Assembly (NCBI GenBank): GCA_016201015.1
Contig: JACQDQ010000194.1
Location: 11,149-75,148, forward strand
DNA length: 64,000 bases
DNA from: Pseudomonadota bacterium
GTDB taxonomy: Bacteria; Pseudomonadota; Alphaproteobacteria; CACIAM-22H2
Direction of reading: 5' to 3'
The notes beneath the pieces are model-generated. The model worked only from the letters and a program-made list of their open reading frames with translations, was not told the origin of the DNA and made no database searches. Positions 3,813 through 37,410 of the stretch are shown piece by piece; within the stretch, counting starts at the first letter, position 1; each line of letters opens with the position of its first letter. The position numbers were made by a program, and so were the translations under genes.

Positions 3813-6413
3813 ATGCTGGCGACAATGTTGCGGAACCTGGCGGTAAGCGTAGTGGATTGGTGCTGGCACCGCGCCGCGACGGTGGTTGCCGTCGCCGCGC
3901 TGCTGACGGTTCTGTTGGGCCTGTATGCCGCCAAGACGCTGACCCTGGACACCGACGAGAGCAAGATGATCTCGTCCGATCTGCCCTTCCGTCAGGTCGA
4001 GCGCGCCATCGATGCCGCCTTCCCCCATTCCACCGACCGCCTGACCGTCATCCTGGACGGTCCCAGCGTGGAAATGGCCGAGGATGCCATCGAGCGGCTG
4101 GGCCAGGCCTTGCCGGCCCGGCACAAGGGCCTGGTCAATGCGGCGTCGCGCCCGGCCGAGGAAATGTTCTTCCGCCGCAATGGGCTGCTGTTCCTGTCGC
4201 TCTCCGAGGTCACCGCCCTCACCGAGCGCCTGGTGCAGTCCCAGCCTTTCCTGGGGGGGATCGCCCGCGACCCCTCGCTGCGCGGCCTGCTGGGCTCTGT
4301 CGATCTGATCTTGCAAGGCGTCGCCCATGGTCAGGCCCAGCCCGCCGACATCGAGCCGCTGCTGGCCCAATTGGAGGCCCCCGCCGCCGCCGCCGCCGCC
4401 GGAAAGAGCGTGGCGCCGGTGGATTGGCAGGGTCTGATGTCGGGAGGCGGCGCCAAGGATACGCCCCGGCGCTTCCTGATGGTCCAGGCGGCCCTGAATT
4501 ACGGCGAGCTGGAGCCTGGCTCCGACGCCATCGACGCCATCCGCGCCACCGCCCGCGATCTGGGCCTGACCGCCGCCAACGGCTATCATCTGCGCATCAC
4601 CGGACAGGTGGCCCTGTCCGACGCCAATTTCGCCACCGTGGCCGAAGGGGTGGAGATTTCGGCGCCGCTCTCCCTGCTGGCCGTACTGGGGCTGCTGTTC
4701 TGGGGCGTGCGCTCGGCCCGCGTGGTCGGCGCCATCATGATCTCCCTGGTGGTGGGGCTGGTGGCCACCGCCGCCTTCGCCGCCGCCACCGTCGGCAGCC
4801 TCAACCCCATCTCGGTGGCCTTCGCGGTGATGTTCGTGGGCATCGCCGTGGATTTCGCCATCCAGTTCGTCACCGCCTATCGCAACGAGCGCTACCTGAA
4901 GGGCGAGGCCGCCGCCGCCATCCTGGCCTCGGCCGGAACCATGGCGGCGCCCCTGTCCCTGGCGGCCATCGCCACCGCCGTGGGCTTCCTGTCCTTCCTG
5001 CCCACCGCCTATACCGGCGTGTCGCAATTGGGCCTGATCGCCGGCGGCGGCATGATCATCGCCCTGGTGGTGGACTTCACCGTCCTGCCCGCTTTGCTGG
5101 CCCTGCTCAAGCCCCATCCCGAGAAGGAACCGGTGGGCCTGCGTCTTCAGGCCGCCGATTCGTGGCTACGCCGCCGCTCCCGCCCCATCGTCTGGGTCGG
5201 CGGCGCCATCGCCCTGCTCGGCGCCGCCCTGCTGCCGATCATGAAGCTGGATTTCGATCCCCTGCACCTGCAAGACCCCAAGGCCGAGGCGGTCTCCACC
5301 TTCCTCGATCTGGCCCGCGACCCCGATAACGGCGTCTATGCCGTGGAGGCCCTGGCCCCCTCGGTGGCCGAGGCGGCCAGGCTGGCGGCGCGGTTCGAGG
5401 CGTTGCCCCAGGTCCATCGGGTCATGACCATCGAGACGTTCATCCCCGATGGCCAGGACGACAAGCTGCCGCTCATCACCGACGCCGCCATGGTCCTGGG
5501 GCCGACCCTGTCGCCGGCCAGGGTCATGGCCAAGCCCTCGCCCGAGGACTTGCTGGCCGCCATTTCCAAGGTCGCCGGGCAGCTCGAGACCATCGCGCCC
5601 GACCACAAGCCCTCCCAATCCCTGGCCCGCCATCTGCGCCGCATCGCCGAGCAGGGAGCCAAGGCCGCCATGGCCCTGGACCACAGCGTCGCCGACGGGC
5701 TGCCGGGATTGCTGTCGAGCCTGCGCCGCTCCCTCGATGTCGAGCCGGTCACCCTGGATTCCATTCCCGCCGAGCTAAAGCACGAATGGGTGGCCGCCGA
5801 TGGTCGCGCCCGCATCCAGGTTCTGCCCAAGGACAGCATGCAGGACCAGGAGGCCCGCAACCGCTTCAATGCCGCCGTCACCGCCATCACCCCCGCCATG
5901 TCCGGCGCTCCCATCTCCATGGAGCAATCGGGCCGGGTGGTCATCGGCGCCTTCGCCATCGCCGGCCTGGGGGCTCTGGCCGCCATCGGCCTGCTGCTGG
6001 GCCTGATGCTGCGCCGGGTGCTGGATTCGGTGCTGGTGCTGGCGCCGCTGCTGCTGGGCGCCATGGCCACGGTCATCGCGGCGCGGGCCACCGGGATCGC
6101 GCTCAACTTCGCCAATGTCATCGCCCTGCCCCTGCTGCTGGGCATCGGCGTCGCCTTCAACATCTATTTCGTGGTCAATTGGCGCAACGGCATCACCGAC
6201 CATCTGTCGTCGCCCACCACCCGCGCCGTGCTGTTCTCGGCCCTGACCACCGGATCGGCGTTCGGCAGCCTGGCCATGTCGCCGCATCTGGGCACGGCGT
6301 CCATGGGCCTGTTGCTGTTCTTGTCATTGGGACTGTCGGTGGCAGCCACCTTCGTGGTATTGCCGGCTATCTTCCATCTGATCGGCTCCCCTTCGAACGG
6401 AACGCCCAAGTGA
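3813..6413 (+). CDS. hpnN: hopanoid-associated RND/MMPL transporter HpnN
   Basis: 866 aa with two 6-TM MMPL blocks and large periplasmic loops; located within a cluster of hpn genes. Confidence 0.8.
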   Translation: MLATMLRNLAVSVVDWCWHRAATVVAVAALLTVLLGLYAAKTLTLDTDESKMISSDLPFRQVERAIDAAFPHSTDRLTVILDGPSVEMAEDAIERLGQALPARHKGLVNAASRPAEEMFFRRNGLLFLSLSEVTALTERLVQSQPFLGGIARDPSLRGLLGSVDLILQGVAHGQAQPADIEPLLAQLEAPAAAAAAGKSVAPVDWQGLMSGGGAKDTPRRFLMVQAALNYGELEPGSDAIDAIRATARDLGLTAANGYHLRITGQVALSDANFATVAEGVEISAPLSLLAVLGLLFWGVRSARVVGAIMISLVVGLVATAAFAAATVGSLNPISVAFAVMFVGIAVDFAIQFVTAYRNERYLKGEAAAAILASAGTMAAPLSLAAIATAVGFLSFLPTAYTGVSQLGLIAGGGMIIALVVDFTVLPALLALLKPHPEKEPVGLRLQAADSWLRRRSRPIVWVGGAIALLGAALLPIMKLDFDPLHLQDPKAEAVSTFLDLARDPDNGVYAVEALAPSVAEAARLAARFEALPQVHRVMTIETFIPDGQDDKLPLITDAAMVLGPTLSPARVMAKPSPEDLLAAISKVAGQLETIAPDHKPSQSLARHLRRIAEQGAKAAMALDHSVADGLPGLLSSLRRSLDVEPVTLDSIPAELKHEWVAADGRARIQVLPKDSMQDQEARNRFNAAVTAITPAMSGAPISMEQSGRVVIGAFAIAGLGALAAIGLLLGLMLRRVLDSVLVLAPLLLGAMATVIAARATGIALNFANVIALPLLLGIGVAFNIYFVVNWRNGITDHLSSPTTRAVLFSALTTGSAFGSLAMSPHLGTASMGLLLFLSLGLSVAATFVVLPAIFHLIGSPSNGTPK

Positions 6414-17406: not shown

Positions 17407-18978
17407 ATGACCCCGCAAGCCGTGGGGGTTGAAAGCCCGCCTGGAGGACTAGGTCCAGTGTTCATCGCAAGCCGTGACAATCGCATCCGCCCGCCCCGCC
17501 TGCTGCTGGCGGGCATGGCCCTCATCGCCGTGCTGCTCCATGCCGGCGCCGCCGATGCCGAGGCCGCCGCGCCGCCGGCCAGCTTCGCCGATCTGGCCGA
17601 AAGGCTGTTGCCCAGCGTGGTCAACATCTCCACCACCCAGACGGTCAAGGCCCCCCAGGGCGCACCGGAAATGCCCCAATTCCCGCCGGGCTCGCCCTTG
17701 GAGGAATTCTTCAAGGAATTCCTCGAGCGCCAGCAGGGCGGCGGCCGTCCCGATGCGCCGTCACGCAAGGCGACCTCGCTGGGCTCGGGCTTCATCATCG
17801 ATGCCGGCGGCTATATCGTGACCAACAATCACGTCATCGCCGACGCCGACGAGATCAGCGTGCGCCTGCATGACGACAGCGTCTTCCAGGCCACCCTGGT
17901 GGGCCGCGACCCCAAGGTCGATCTGGCCCTGCTGAAGATCGAGCCCGGCAAGAAGGCCCTGCAGGCCGTGCCCTTCGGCAATTCCGACGAAGCCCGCGTC
18001 GGCGATTGGGTGCTGGCCATCGGCAATCCCTTCGGCTTTGGCGGCACCGTCACCGCCGGCATCGTTTCGGCCCGGGCCCGCGACATCAACGCCGGTCCCT
18101 ATGACGATTTCATCCAGACCGACGCCGCCATCAACCGCGGCAATTCCGGCGGCCCCATGTTCAACATGAAGGGCGAGGTCATCGGCATCAACTCGGCCAT
18201 CATCTCGCCGTCGGGCGGCTCCATCGGCATCGGCTTCGCCGTGCCGTCTTCCCTGGCCATGCCGGTTCTCGAGGATCTCAGGAAGTTCGGCAAGGTGCGG
18301 CGCGGCTGGCTGGGCATCCGCATCCAGTCCCTGGACACCGACATGGCCGAGAATATCGGCCTGCCCGACCAGAAGGGTGCCCTGGTGGCCAAGGTCGATC
18401 CCGCCGGCCCCGGCGTCAAGGCAGGCCTCAAGGACGGCGACGTGGTCCTCAAGTTCGACGGTAAGGACATCACCGAGATGCGCCGCCTGCCCCGCTACGT
18501 GGCCAGCACGCCCATCGGCAAGAAGGTGGAAATGGTGGTGTGGCGCGACGGCAAGCGCCAGACCATCACCGCCACCGTGGGCGAAATGCCGGAAGACCCC
18601 TCCGAACAGCAGGTCAAGGGCAAGCCCGAAACCCCCAAGCCCCAGGCGGGCAAGGACGGCGTGCTCTCCATCCCCGGCGCCGGCCTTACCGTGTCGTCAC
18701 TGACCCCGGCCTTGCGTGAGCGCTTCGCCATCGAAGACGAGTCCAAAGGCATCGTCGTCACCGAGGTCAAGCAGGACAGCCCGGCCGCCGAAAAGGGCCT
18801 GCGCCCCGGCGATCTGATCATCGAGGCCGATCACAAGCCGGTCCGCACCCCCGCCGATCTGGGCAAGCTGATCGACGAAGGCCGCAAGGCGGGCGCCAAA
18901 TCGCTGCTGCTCCGGGTCGAGAACCCCCAGCAACTGCGCTACATCGCCCTGCCCCTGGCCGAGGGCAAGAAGAAGTAG
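17407..18978 (+). CDS. degP: periplasmic serine endoprotease DegP/HtrA (Do family, two PDZ domains)
   Basis: Catalytic H (TNNHVI), D and S (GNSGGP) plus two PDZ segments; signal peptide LLLAGMALIAVLLHAGAADA. The true start may be GTG ~17458. Confidence 0.9.
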   Translation: MTPQAVGVESPPGGLGPVFIASRDNRIRPPRLLLAGMALIAVLLHAGAADAEAAAPPASFADLAERLLPSVVNISTTQTVKAPQGAPEMPQFPPGSPLEEFFKEFLERQQGGGRPDAPSRKATSLGSGFIIDAGGYIVTNNHVIADADEISVRLHDDSVFQATLVGRDPKVDLALLKIEPGKKALQAVPFGNSDEARVGDWVLAIGNPFGFGGTVTAGIVSARARDINAGPYDDFIQTDAAINRGNSGGPMFNMKGEVIGINSAIISPSGGSIGIGFAVPSSLAMPVLEDLRKFGKVRRGWLGIRIQSLDTDMAENIGLPDQKGALVAKVDPAGPGVKAGLKDGDVVLKFDGKDITEMRRLPRYVASTPIGKKVEMVVWRDGKRQTITATVGEMPEDPSEQQVKGKPETPKPQAGKDGVLSIPGAGLTVSSLTPALRERFAIEDESKGIVVTEVKQDSPAAEKGLRPGDLIIEADHKPVRTPADLGKLIDEGRKAGAKSLLLRVENPQQLRYIALPLAEGKKK

Positions 18979-18987
18979 GCGGTATTT

Positions 18988-19040
18988 ACCCCCTCCCCAA
19001 GGCTTAGCCGGGGGGAGGGGGTGACGGTTTCTCGTTTGTT
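18988..19040 (+). terminator. putative rho-independent terminator after degP
   Basis: ACCCCCTCCCCaaggcttagccGGGGGGAGGGGGT stem-loop followed by a T-rich tract. Confidence 0.45.
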
Positions 19041-19075
19041 CCATAAATTGATAGAGATCGTAGGGTGCCCCCTCA

Positions 19076-19615
19076 ATGAGCAGGCCCATGGACGCGCGCA
19101 AGATCGCCGATTACATCCTTTCAAAAATCAACACTGAAGCCGGTGATTCCATCACCAATTTAAAGCTTCAGAAAGTGCTGTACTACACCCAGGGCTGGGC
19201 ACTTGCCGTCTTGGGGAAGCCGCTTTTTGACGAGGAAATCGAGGCCTGGAAATATGGCCCCGTCGTCCCCTCCATCTACCACGCCTTCAAGATGTTTGGA
19301 GACGGCGCGATTCTGCCTACCCGCGACTTGGCCCCACTCACCAGCGATATTTCAATCGAAATCATCTCTTTGATTGATCAGGTTTGGGACCGCTATGGCG
19401 AAATGTCAGGCGTTGCATTGATGAAGAAGACGCATCGCGAGACGCCTTGGCTTGATGCGTACGATTGCGATGTCAGCTCCAAGCCAATTTCGAAGGCTGA
19501 TATGCGGGCCTATTTCCTATGCGAGCAGGAATCGCTAATCCGAGAAAGCGGGCTTGGCCCGCCTGATATGGAAACGGCCCAATCCATCGAAAAGACGCTC
19601 GCAGCCCATGCCTGA
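19076..19615 (+). CDS. Panacea-domain (DUF4065, SocA/GepA-like) antitoxin-type protein
   Basis: N-terminal hallmark KLQKVLYYTQGWALAVLGKPLF...WKYGPVVPSIY typical of DUF4065. Sits in a lower-GC ~0.9 kb segment between degP and serB. Confidence 0.7.
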   Translation: MSRPMDARKIADYILSKINTEAGDSITNLKLQKVLYYTQGWALAVLGKPLFDEEIEAWKYGPVVPSIYHAFKMFGDGAILPTRDLAPLTSDISIEIISLIDQVWDRYGEMSGVALMKKTHRETPWLDAYDCDVSSKPISKADMRAYFLCEQESLIRESGLGPPDMETAQSIEKTLAAHA

Positions 19616-19907
19616 CTTTATCGTTTCGGTAAATCCCTCGGTCGAGGACTGGGTGGCGGAAAATGAGCGGCATCTTCCTGCTTTGGGAAAGACCTTTGGA
19701 ATTGTCCGCAAGTTTCTTGAATGAGACGCTCGTCTCGGAATAAATCTCAAGGATGGGCGCCTGGGTGCCGAGTATCCACGTGGCAGAGATATTCCAGGTT
19801 TGCGCCGCATCGTGGTGGTTTACGCGATTGTCGGTGAAATAGTTACAGTCTCCGGTATCTGGGATAAAGCGGCAGAAACTGGGCTGATTGAACATCCTGG
19901 CCGATAG

Positions 19908-20807
19908 CTACTCCACCATCTCCTCATCCGCATAGCCCTGGGCATAGAGCAGGGTGACCAGATCGCCGTGATCGACCCGCACCCTGGCCTCGGCGGCCAC
20001 CACCGGCTTGGCGTGGAAGGCGACGCCCAGGCCGGCGGCACGTAGCATGTCCAGGTCGTTGGCGCCATCGCCCACCGCCACCGCCAGTTCCGGGGTGATG
20101 CCCAGTTCGGCAGCAAAGGCGTTCAGGGTGGCCAGCTTGGCCTCGCGGCCGATGATGGTGTCTCCAACCTGACCGGTCAGTAGACCATCCTCGACGATCA
20201 GCTCGTTGGCGATATCGCGGTGAAAGCCGCAGGCCTCGCGCACCTTGGAGGTGAAGAACTTGAAGCCGCCCGAGACCAGCACGGCGGTGGCCCCGTGCTT
20301 GACCATGGTCCGCACCAGCTTGTGGGCGCCGGGGGTGAATTCGATACGCTCCCAGGTCTGCCGCAGGCAATCGGCCGACAGGCCCTTGAGCAGGCCGACC
20401 CGCTCGCGCAATGCCGCCTCGAAGCCGATCTCGCCATTCATGGCCCGCGCCGTGATGGCGGCGATATGATTCTTGAGGCCGGCGAAGTCGGCCAACTCGT
20501 CCAGGGTCTCCCCGGTGACCATGGTGGAATCCATGTCGGCGACCAGCAGGCGCTTGCGCCGCCCCTCGGTCTTCTGGGCCACCACGTCCACGTCCCAGCC
20601 TTCGAGGATACGGGCGGCAACCTGATCGGCCTGGCGGGGGTCGAGCCCCTGGAATTCCAGGTCGCAGGCGTGTCCCTCCGACAGCCACGAGGCGGCGCCG
20701 GCCTCGGCCCCCAGGGCGCGCAGCGCGCCGCGAACCTCGAACACCAGCGAGGAATCGAGCCCTTCGCCGCCATGGCCGGCGATCAGGGTCAGAACGTTTT
20801 CCATCAC
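19908..20807 (-). CDS. serB: phosphoserine phosphatase SerB
   Basis: HAD motifs DMDSTM and GDGANDL; 299 aa. Confidence 0.9.
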   Translation of the reverse strand: MMENVLTLIAGHGGEGLDSSLVFEVRGALRALGAEAGAASWLSEGHACDLEFQGLDPRQADQVAARILEGWDVDVVAQKTEGRRKRLLVADMDSTMVTGETLDELADFAGLKNHIAAITARAMNGEIGFEAALRERVGLLKGLSADCLRQTWERIEFTPGAHKLVRTMVKHGATAVLVSGGFKFFTSKVREACGFHRDIANELIVEDGLLTGQVGDTIIGREAKLATLNAFAAELGITPELAVAVGDGANDLDMLRAAGLGVAFHAKPVVAAEARVRVDHGDLVTLLYAQGYADEEMVE

Positions 20808-35668: not shown

Positions 35669-36820
35669 ATGCCGCTGTTATTTGCGACCCCGCGCGGCGA
35701 TTTGACGATCCTCGGCAAACTGCGCCAGGTCAATTGGGGCCTCATCCTCCTTATCGCCGTCGTCTCGTCGATCGGCTTCGCCATGCTCTACTCGGCCGCC
35801 GGTGGCCGCTGGGACCCTTGGGCCTCGCGGCAGATGTATCGCTTCGGGGTCGGCTTCGTTCTGCTGCTCGTTGTGGCGGTCGTCGACCTGCGCGTGTGGT
35901 ATCGCTTCGCCTACGCCCTCTATTTCGTCGCGCTAGTGCTGCTGGTGGCGGTCGAGGTAGCGGGACGCATCGGCATGGGCGCGCAGCGTTGGCTCGACGT
36001 CGGCTTCCTTCAGCTGCAACCTTCGGAGCTGATGAAGATCTCGTTGGTGCTCGTGCTGGCGCGCTGGTTCCATGGCCTGACGCTCGAAGACGTCGGGCGG
36101 CCCCTCAGTCTCGTGTGGCCGACGGTTCTGGTGCTGGCACCTGCCGTCCTGGTGGCGAAGCAGCCGGATCTAGGGTCGGCACTCCTTCTCTTGTTGATGT
36201 CGGCCATCGTCTATTTCGTCGCCGGAGTGCGGCTGTGGAAATTTGCCGCGATCGCGGCGACCGCCGGCGCGGTCATACCTCTCGCCTGGAATCACTTGCG
36301 CGACTATCAAAAGCAGCGGGTCTTGACCTTTCTCAATCCCGAAAATGACCCCTTGGGCTCCGGCTATCACATCATCCAGTCGAAAATCGCGCTCGGGTCG
36401 GGCGGCATGTGGGGCAAGGGATTTATGCAGGGGACGCAGAGCCATCTGCAATTCCTGCCGGAAAAGCAAACTGACTTTATCTTCACCATGCTTTCGGAGG
36501 AGTGGGGCTTCGTCGGCGGGCTGACGCTGATAGGATTGTACGTCCTCATTTTGCTCTACGGGGCCGCCATCTCGCTCAGGGCGCGCAGCCAGTTCGGGCG
36601 GCTGGTCGCGGTTGGTATCGTCTCCAGCTTCTACATCTACGCCTTCATCAACATAGCGATGGTGATGGGCATGCTGCCGGTGGTCGGCGAGCCGTTGCCA
36701 CTTGTTTCCTATGGCGGCACGGCGATGATGACGCTGCTCATCGGCTTCGGCATGCTGATCAACGTCTATGTGCACCGCGACCTGCAAATCGGTCGCCACG
36801 GGCAAACGCCCGAGGCTTGA
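35669..36820 (+). CDS. rodA: SEDS-family peptidoglycan polymerase RodA
   Basis: 383 aa, 10-TM SEDS protein following mrdA. Confidence 0.9.
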   Translation: MPLLFATPRGDLTILGKLRQVNWGLILLIAVVSSIGFAMLYSAAGGRWDPWASRQMYRFGVGFVLLLVVAVVDLRVWYRFAYALYFVALVLLVAVEVAGRIGMGAQRWLDVGFLQLQPSELMKISLVLVLARWFHGLTLEDVGRPLSLVWPTVLVLAPAVLVAKQPDLGSALLLLLMSAIVYFVAGVRLWKFAAIAATAGAVIPLAWNHLRDYQKQRVLTFLNPENDPLGSGYHIIQSKIALGSGGMWGKGFMQGTQSHLQFLPEKQTDFIFTMLSEEWGFVGGLTLIGLYVLILLYGAAISLRARSQFGRLVAVGIVSSFYIYAFINIAMVMGMLPVVGEPLPLVSYGGTAMMTLLIGFGMLINVYVHRDLQIGRHGQTPEA

Positions 36821-36898
36821 AGGCCGCCAGCCTCTATCGACAAACCGTCGGCGCTTTGCTATATCGCCGGCGCCGCCCGCCGGGTGCGGTCGGAATCC

Positions 36899-36974
36899 GG
36901 GCCATTAGCTCAATTGGTAGAGCAGCGGACTCTTAATCCGTTGGTTGGGGGTTCAAGTCCCTCATGGCCCACCA
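36899..36974 (+). tRNA. tRNA-Lys (anticodon CTT), CCA encoded
   Basis: Cloverleaf folded by hand: 7-bp acceptor stem GGGCCAT/ATGGCCC, D-arm GCTC..GAGC, anticodon loop CTCTTAA, T-arm GGGGGTTCAAGTCCCTC, 3' ACCA. Confidence 0.85.
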
Positions 36975-37410
36975 TTTGCGCGACACTCCACCAGCATCAC
37001 CGCCGTCGCTATTGGCGCCGTTTGCGCTGGCGGCGCATATGAATTGAGCTGAAACCCACGCTGGGCGAAGCGTCGACGGCTGGCGCGGCGTGCGGACGCT
37101 GGCGAATGAAATTGTCGCCTGCGGTGCCAAGTTACCGCAGGGCGTGTCGGTATGTGTTACAATGACTGTCAAAACTTCTTACACCGGCGCGACAGTAAGT
37201 GTTGATGATCTGAAATCTCAGCACCCAAATCATTGGACATGCACATATATGCCAATCGACATAGGAGTGGCACGGCCCTTGCTTTCCTTACAATCGGCCG
37301 GTGCGGCGATGGCCAACACGTCTCTCCCATTCGCTCGCCGCACTCGGACGTGCGCTGCGTCGGCGCAACGGTTCGTAGCCCCCCGCGCCTCTGGGGTTAC
37401 GGTAAACTCG

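Follow-up and report, generated by a model that had tools for sequence, protein, structure and literature searches.

A probable Panacea toxin-antitoxin cassette with a pseudogenised partner of predicted RelE/ParE fold at the degP/serB junction of a Magnetospirillum-related genome

The panA gene and its interrupted partner frame

The window analysed here, a 64,000-nt stretch of contig JACQDQ010000194.1 from an alphaproteobacterial assembly in which all coordinates below, unless assigned to another contig, are positions, carries between degP and serB a segment (18980-19907) that holds panA, a gene for a Panacea-domain antitoxin, and an overlapping frame of 99 codons, here called T99, that is broken by a stop codon. 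An earlier reading made from the sequence alone had described this segment as visibly lower in GC content than its flanks, and this is borne out by the numbers: its GC content is 0.531 as compared to a window mean of 0.649 (standard deviation of the sliding windows 0.027, z = -4.29), which makes it the deepest dip at this length within the 64 kb, with 0.12% of windows of the same size being equally low. The GC content at third codon positions (GC3) is 0.656 in panA and 0.480 in the T99 frame as opposed to 0.878 in degP and 0.867 in serB.

The panA gene (19076-19615, plus strand) is intact and encodes 179 amino acids (aa) from its first ATG. Its product matches profile positions 1-112 of 113 of PF13274 (SocA_Panacea, or DUF4065) with 79 bits at a cutoff of 25.7 (E 6.6e-22), in line with the DUF4065 assignment made by the sequence-only reading, and is 100% identical to P0001, an NCBI entry from a metagenome-assembled genome (MAG) that is named 'SocA family protein [Magnetospirillum sp.]'. 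This name is not to be read as SocA orthology, since the NCBIfam equivalog model for SocA, NF047745, scores the window protein at 83.5 bits (E 1.4e-23) and thus falls short of its cutoff of 190. PanA retains all residues that are invariant in the Panacea domain: in an alignment of 10 sequences KLQKVLYYTQGW and the GPV motif lie in family-invariant columns, with 'YGPVVPS' being present and G61, P62 and V64 being invariant. The GPV motif is reported to be critical for neutralisation by PanA (PMC8832971). The AlphaFold2 model of the window protein is confident (predicted local distance difference test, pLDDT, 88.8), and no helix-turn-helix (HTH) or ribbon-helix-helix DNA-binding domain was detected in it. 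The start of panA is ambiguous, as either the ATG at 19076 or the NCBI-annotated ATG at 19088 (175 aa, 'MDARKIADY...') may be used, both of which are kept in four carrier loci.

The T99 frame (19608-19907, plus strand) starts with an ATG that overlaps the panA stop by 8 nt (ATGCCTGA) and extends to a TAG at 19905-19907, with a TGA at codon 39 (19722-19724) as the sole in-frame interruption. DNA alignment shows that each of the three relatives compared has CGG (Arg) as codon 39, so that the window differs from them at two bases of this codon. Read straight through the stop, the frame shares 54-61% protein identity with intact 99-aa genes located behind panA in relatives, the products of which align with it over their full length at a mean column identity of 75%; a tblastn search with one of them, P0121, against the window-identical contig L087 aligned 96 aa across the stop with 61% identity (E 4e-34). 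The statement of the sequence-only reading that no toxin-sized gene is present therefore does not hold. The Logan assemblies L087 and L088, which stem from other sequencing runs, contain the same TGA, and TGA is the normal stop of hflC, DUF2065, panA and nnrS in the window, which together make recoding or a one-off assembly error unlikely. In addition, the window copy has the lowest GC3 of all T99 copies and carries the exchange G25A, which turns the PGL motif invariant in five intact members into PAL, and both features fit relaxed constraint after inactivation.

Judged by these alignments, T99 is a pseudogene in this genome, with the nonsense codon truncating its predicted product before the β-sheet, and PanA would in functional terms be an orphan antitoxin. 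The earlier alternative of an orphan antitoxin or a very small or unrecognised partner is thus apt as a functional description of this genome, but a partner does exist and is not very small: a gene of normal size, it carries a nonsense codon and can be recognised only by comparison with relatives. We suggest that the locus be annotated as 'PanA antitoxin plus pseudogenised RelE/ParE-fold PanT', in place of a 'SocA family protein' with nothing but intergenic DNA behind it.

Intact and broken cassettes in relatives

The closest relatives of the window PanA (70%, 66% and 58% identity) were traced to their own contigs. Two of these contig pairs, L003/L004 and L005/L006, contain an intact T99 gene of 99 aa that overlaps panA by 8 nt as in the window (ATGCCTGA) and has Arg at codon 39; degP and serB both flank the cassette in L005, whereas the short contigs L003/L004 include degP alone and L006 a fragment of serB. 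In the third pair, L001/L002 (hflK-hflC-degP-panA-...-serB), T99 is broken by a frameshifting deletion of 11 nt at about codons 56-59. Because L003 is intact and yet very close to L001 (95% identity in DegP and 87% in PanA), the break in L001 most likely is recent and independent of the nonsense mutation in the window. In both lineages with a broken T99, panA is intact. Such loss of the toxin first with retention of the antitoxin, here apparently twice independently, is the order expected for the decay of a toxin-antitoxin (TA) system, and it indirectly points to a T99 product that is harmful when unopposed.

The cassette is preceded by a promoter-like element (GTGACG, 17-nt spacer, TAAATT; 19021-19049, plus strand), which is located downstream of the degP terminator hairpin and was recognised by its conservation across loci. 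The TGAC of the -35 hexamer is invariant in an alignment of four carrier loci, the relatives having TTGACA or TTGACC, and a TA-rich hexamer follows about 17 nt further on in the relatives as well (CATATT, CATAGT, TATAGT). The window element matches the consensus at 8 of 12 positions, and a generic promoter and terminator scan with a threshold of 9/12 reported no promoter in the segment. The conservation of the element suggests that the cassette has its own promoter.

T99 defines a rare family that adjoins Panacea genes

None of the profile libraries recognises T99, which was found only by synteny and structure prediction. Scans of the window frame and of its homologues P0121-P0125 against Pfam at E-values up to 10 gave no match, and scans of T99 and its homologues against NCBIfam, PADLOC and PHROGs gave no usable one; a match to PD-Lambda-5_A (E 0.049, 10.5 bits) was treated as noise. 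A word-indexed homology search with the read-through product of the window, with X at the stop, returned nothing. Among 5.8 billion protein clusters, a search with the T99 family alignment retrieved P0121 and P0122 only, that is the two intact orthologues, and an exhaustive search of 1.84 billion representatives with HMMER yielded four matches, namely P0122, P0123 (E 6.6e-18), P0124 (E 3.9e-5) and P0125 (E 6e-4). Scans for T99 in JGI metagenome contigs and in IMG/VR viral contigs yielded no confirmed match, and among the 70 loci retrieved from metagenomes by a scan with PanA, all at no more than 52% identity, none has a T99-like neighbour.

Each of the five homologues P0121-P0125, with identities down to about 35%, lies immediately downstream of a Panacea gene, which it overlaps or abuts. 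Their neighbourhoods are the degP/serB junction, an HTH regulator and a major facilitator superfamily transporter (L089, the PanA of which, P0005, is 45% identical to that of the window), lysis genes of the gene transfer agent (GTA) type and DUF952 (L162/L163), and DUF6948 (L165/L166). As the pairing is constant across at least four unrelated contexts, we regard PanA and T99 as a functional module. By these searches T99 is a sequence orphan, new to the PanA partner landscape and very rare in it. The most divergent homologue, P0124 (117 aa), and its PanA are located at L162:1025-2854 and L163:163-1992 directly after genes for a Hydrolase_2 cell-wall hydrolase and a GTA_holin_3TM protein, and this position at the end of a GTA-like or prophage lysis block hints at phage-associated spread.

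Predicted fold of T99

The AlphaFold2 model of the intact orthologue P0121 (pLDDT 76.4, predicted template modelling score 0.69) has the order strand, helix, helix, strand, strand, strand and thereby the arrangement of the RelE/ParE fold, with an N-terminal strand, a helical hairpin and an antiparallel sheet of three strands. All of its top 19 structural neighbours are bona fide TA toxins, and a Foldseek search, with weaker results, gave YafQ, YoeB and RelE as the best matches. At the level of sequence profiles T99 does not belong to this group according to the ParE, RelE, YoeB, YafQ and HigB models of Pfam and NCBIfam. In a search of the PDB with the family profile ParE2 appeared below the threshold (E 0.65); further matches in this search, to a NifA fragment, designed helical-repeat proteins and a transthyretin-like protein, were spurious.

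Only M1, P24, G44, G50, P57, P63, G64 and G83 are invariant across six sequences of the family, and the C-terminal tail is not conserved, with P0125 ending right after the last strand. Since none of the residues conserved across the family is a candidate for catalysis, we lean towards a ParE-like, non-catalytic mode of action for T99 more than towards a RelE-like one.

A C-terminal extension in PanA proteins that adjoin T99

Comparison of PanA proteins revealed a C-terminal extension of about 30 residues (ExExL...GLxxP...helix), which in the window is encoded by the last part of panA (about aa 155-179; 19538-19612, plus strand) and comprises the end of a helix (140-157), a GLGPPD linker (158-164) and a terminal helix (165-178). 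In the AlphaFold2 model the linker has a pLDDT of about 66 and the terminal helix one of about 77. The extension is present in every PanA that adjoins T99 (window, P0002-P0005, L162 and L165) and absent from the other Panacea proteins compared (P0006, P0009, P0010, P0020 and P0037). Some PanA proteins neutralise via appended elements, such as the Phd-C element against Doc, with the Panacea core being accessory, a mode referred to as 'linear neutralisation' (Ernits et al. 2023, PMC10440598), and a sensory role has been proposed for Panacea (PMC10440598). By analogy, it is plausible that the extension is the T99-binding element of PanA and that its terminal helix makes the contact.

In L164, a single metagenomic contig, panA has suffered an in-frame deletion of 113 codons (423-641; compare L162:1969-2526) while T99 downstream is intact. 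The deletion, with its junction at a short 'EDV' repeat, fuses residues 1-52 of PanA with the final 20 and removes most of the Panacea core. The resulting protein could be a natural mini-antitoxin, or else its presence could be a sign that T99 is tolerated without a full PanA.

History of the insertion

At least three other lineages, with DegP C-termini 63-82% identical to that of the window, carry the cassette at this junction too. Among carriers, PanA identities of 87%, about 70% and 55-60% follow DegP C-terminal identities of 95%, 82% and 62-63%, respectively. That the divergence of PanA tracks that of DegP argues for a single old acquisition followed by vertical descent. Use of SerB as a probe retrieved 80 species-representative genomes, none of which contains panA or T99; in 15 of the 80, degP and serB lie tail-to-tail with a gap of 12-250 nt, which we take as the presumptive empty site.

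These comparisons agree with the sequence-only reading in so far as it had regarded the segment as an insertion, but they make a recent event improbable: the cassette appears to be an old insertion that has been inherited vertically. For that reading, the presence of the gene at the junction in every relative, with GC being uniform, would have spoken against an insertion. The gene does recur at the junction in the lineages named above, but it is missing from the 80 genomes, and GC (as GC3) of the cassette lies below that of the flanks in every carrier. Its observation that no integrase and no obvious direct repeats flank the segment was confirmed: the open reading frames (ORFs) of the window around the segment include no integrase, direct repeats or att-like sites around it amount to short chance matches, and as to a tRNA integration site the sole tRNA gene of the window lies at a distance of 17 kb.

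The convergent degP/serB junction is variable across Alphaproteobacteria (L007-L086). About 22 genomes have a gap of 540-700 nt with different cargo, and in others the gap exceeds 1 kb. A Mesorhizobium locus carries a gene for a 190-aa GNAT acetyltransferase in the gap (L035:5885-6457), while a gap of about 590 nt in L008 (5895-6484) contains neither a recognisable gene nor a remnant of the cassette. The closest species representative by SerB, Magnetospirillum sp. GFS_5764 (84%; L007:3095-5257), has no degP beside serB, which is followed there by a 143-aa gene and a glycogen-synthase-like gene; local synteny is thus broken even among close relatives.

A probable PanAT cassette with a dead toxin gene

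Taken together, we consider it probable, and with some confidence, that the segment is a vertically inherited type II TA cassette of the PanAT kind whose RelE/ParE-fold toxin gene is pseudogenised in this genome. This proposal is supported directly by the Panacea domain, the homology of T99 and its lesion, the independent second lesion, the strict pairing of PanA with T99 and the predicted fold. Features found in type II TA systems in general are present as well, since the cassette is bicistronic, has a conserved 8-nt overlap and a promoter-like element, is patchily distributed and low in GC. The conserved two-gene neighbourhood with a toxin-like partner that characterises Panacea antitoxins is seen across at least four contexts, with the partner in the window being a pseudogene. 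PanA proteins neutralise by direct binding and ParE is among the known PanT domains (PMC8832971), and C-terminal extensions can be the neutralising element of PanA (PMC10440598).

We envisage that an ancestor of a Magnetospirillum-related clade acquired the cassette between the convergent genes degP and serB and that it was passed on by vertical descent from then on. It would consist of panA, encoding a Panacea core with a lineage-specific tethered C-terminal helix, and of T99, which would be translationally coupled to panA via the ATGCCTGA overlap, transcribed from the putative promoter described above, and code for a 99-aa toxin of RelE/ParE fold. In the intact cassette PanA would bind and neutralise T99, most likely by its C-terminal helix in the manner of the ParD, PaaA2, RelB and Phd-C tails, while unbound T99 would arrest growth, be it as a ParE-like poison of DNA gyrase or as a RelE-like toxin that cleaves mRNA in a ribosome-dependent manner. 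In this genome T99 would be dead and PanA left behind as a functionally orphan antitoxin.

Several points weigh against this proposal. The three assemblies with the TGA probably come from one sampling project and are therefore not fully independent. The fold of T99 is deduced from a model that was built from four sequences only and is of moderate confidence (pLDDT 76), and the Foldseek E-values are weak (0.07). No sequence profile supports T99 as a toxin, there being no match in Pfam, NCBIfam, PADLOC and PHROG and none of significance in the PDB profile search, and the biochemical activity of T99 cannot be read from its invariant residues, which besides M1 are all Pro and Gly. Moreover, eight of the PanT proteins tested by Kurata et al. 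were non-toxic in E. coli (PMC8832971), and pairing with PanA is therefore no guarantee of toxicity. Finally, the intact T99 beside a heavily truncated PanA in L164 fits neutralisation by the tail only and a non-toxic T99 equally well.

Could T99 then be no toxin at all but a non-toxic accessory or regulatory partner of PanA with a RelE/ParE fold, for instance in a phage-sensing module whose effector is encoded elsewhere? The lack of conserved catalytic residues, the fact that T99 toxicity is a prediction, the non-toxic PanA partners just mentioned, the gutted PanA of L164 and the sensory role proposed for Panacea by Ernits et al. (PMC10440598) would all be compatible with such a function. Against this stand the structural neighbours of T99, 19 of 19 of which are bona fide TA toxins, and the classic type II signature of an overlapping pair of small genes with patchy contexts, low GC and repeated loss of the second gene. 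We therefore regard a non-toxic T99 as unlikely, if still worth bearing in mind. That the cassette is a functional TA pair, with T99 still being expressed by read-through or recoding of the TGA or the TGA being a sequencing or assembly error, would find support in the 60 codons that continue in frame past the TGA without a further stop and keep most of the conserved residues. Yet the TGA recurs in the MAG and in the two Logan assemblies of separate runs, differs at two bases from the CGG of the relatives, which is not expected of an error, and terminates neighbouring genes including panA; the low GC3 of T99 (0.48) and the exchange in PGL fit relaxed constraint, and the independent lesion in L001 shows that loss of T99 recurs. 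Continued expression of T99 hence seems very improbable to us.

Even less can be said for a relationship with SocAB of type VI, in which PanA, as an adaptor for ClpXP, would hand the toxin over to be degraded rather than inhibit it by binding. The NCBI name and the E-value of the NCBIfam SocA model (1.4e-23) favour it, but the protein fails the equivalog cutoff by a wide margin (83.5 against 190), the predicted fold of the partner is RelE/ParE whereas SocB is a replication-inhibiting toxin (PMC8832971), and the PanA proteins tested so far need neither ClpXP nor Lon for neutralisation and form direct complexes (PMC8832971); we think it extremely unlikely that PanA works in this way. We attach practically no credence to a true orphan, that is a Panacea gene which was acquired alone or whose partner is a tiny peptide or an RNA, with the 290 nt downstream of panA being non-coding. 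It is true that the annotation of this genome shows no ORF of at least 60 aa behind panA and that the downstream frame matches no protein family. Then again, this frame is 54-61% identical to intact 99-aa genes of relatives straight through the stop, by which homology a non-coding stretch is refuted, and a search for known RNA families (Rfam) as a possible RNA partner found none in the segment. The reading that we prefer thus remains that of a PanAT cassette with a pseudogenised toxin gene.

Comparison with known systems

The cassette resembles the ParE-type PanAT systems (Kurata et al. 2022, PMC8832971) in that it combines a Panacea domain above the Pfam threshold, including GPV, with a partner of predicted RelE/ParE fold in an overlapping two-gene operon and is patchily spread in unrelated contexts. 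Different from the ParE-type PanTs, which were detected with CDD (PMC8832971), T99 is undetectable by Pfam and NCBIfam profiles, is very rare (four representatives among 1.84 billion proteins) and is a pseudogene in the window. With PanA-Doc of Corynebacterium doosanense and its Phd-C element (PMC10440598) the cassette shares a Panacea core that is followed by short C-terminal helices specific for the toxin partner and, as proposed, a division of labour in which neutralisation falls to the tail and an accessory or sensory role to the core. The toxin fold, however, is RelE/ParE and not Fic/Doc, and the window extension is unrelated to Phd-C in sequence and shorter, consisting of the linker and one terminal helix of about 14 residues; compared with that of Phd-C, its role is deduced from co-occurrence and one deletion variant (L164) only.

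In ParDE and PaaA2-ParE2 as well as in RelBE, YefM-YoeB and DinJ-YafQ the antitoxin is of the ParD, RelB, Phd or DinJ type and not a Panacea protein as here, and T99 is only 6-19% identical in sequence to the ParE, RelE, YoeB and YafQ toxins of these modules, with no significant profile match. SocAB of Caulobacter, a type VI TA system, has in common with the cassette an antitoxin with a Panacea/DUF4065 domain, hence the automatic NCBI name, but differs from it by the SocA equivalog score, by a partner that is not SocB-like and by the direct binding expected of PanA.

It is established that Panacea antitoxins are paired with many toxin folds, including ParE (PMC8832971), and as a decaying cassette the window copy is an ordinary thing of a kind common in bacterial chromosomes. 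Our findings add a predicted sequence-orphan toxin family to the Panacea network and do not overturn the current understanding of TA systems. A bolder idea, which we put forward tentatively and think rather unlikely, is that T99 represents a new PanT family of RelE/ParE fold which is neutralised by a short portable helix of PanA, while the Panacea core has a toxin-independent function. If so, the L164 protein, which retains 52 residues from the start and 20 from the end of PanA, would be a natural 'mini-antitoxin', and the Panacea core, which has been kept in two lineages after the death of the toxin, might sense a phage or stress cue or act in anti-addiction against incoming elements that bear T99. 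The intact, nonsense, frameshift and antitoxin-deletion variants make up a natural series for the study of linear neutralisation and of the persistence of antitoxins after toxin decay.

Surroundings of the cassette

The order of genes around the segment is hflC (Band_7), DUF2065, degP, [segment], serB, DUF1015, nnrS, miaA, the last of which was named by sequence match to called miaA genes of relatives and not by a domain scan. The left flank outside the cassette is a serine protease gene of the degP/htrA type (17407-18978, plus strand; Trypsin_2 with 126.8 bits and two PDZ domains), and the right flank is the phosphoserine phosphatase gene serB (19908-20807, minus strand; HAD with 78.6 bits). 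The degP terminator hairpin (18988-19022, plus strand) is an inverted repeat with arms of 17 nt that are 88% complementary, followed by a T-rich tract, and an equivalent hairpin is found at the same position in L001 and L003. At the other end of the cassette the TAG of the T99 pseudogene and the stop of serB (CTA on the plus strand) abut as TAGCTA (19905-19910), so that 0 nt and no terminator lie between the two convergent genes; the same end has a GC-rich hairpin in L001 (about 4838-4873) and a 25-nt spacer in L005.

Other dips in GC content in the window, at about 36.3 kb and 55.6 kb, bear no relation to the cassette. The sole tRNA gene of the window, for tRNA-Lys (CTT), is located at 36899-36974 just after a RodA/FtsW-type gene, and the stretch around it (about 36330-37260) is the second-lowest in GC (0.584). 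In L005, which belongs to a Rhodospirillaceae MAG with an intact cassette, a second low-GC gene, of the PDDEXK_3 nuclease family (4149-4535; GC content 0.543 as compared to about 0.66 in the flanks), lies between serB and miaA, where the window has DUF1015 and nnrS. Foreign cargo is thus accepted on both sides of serB.

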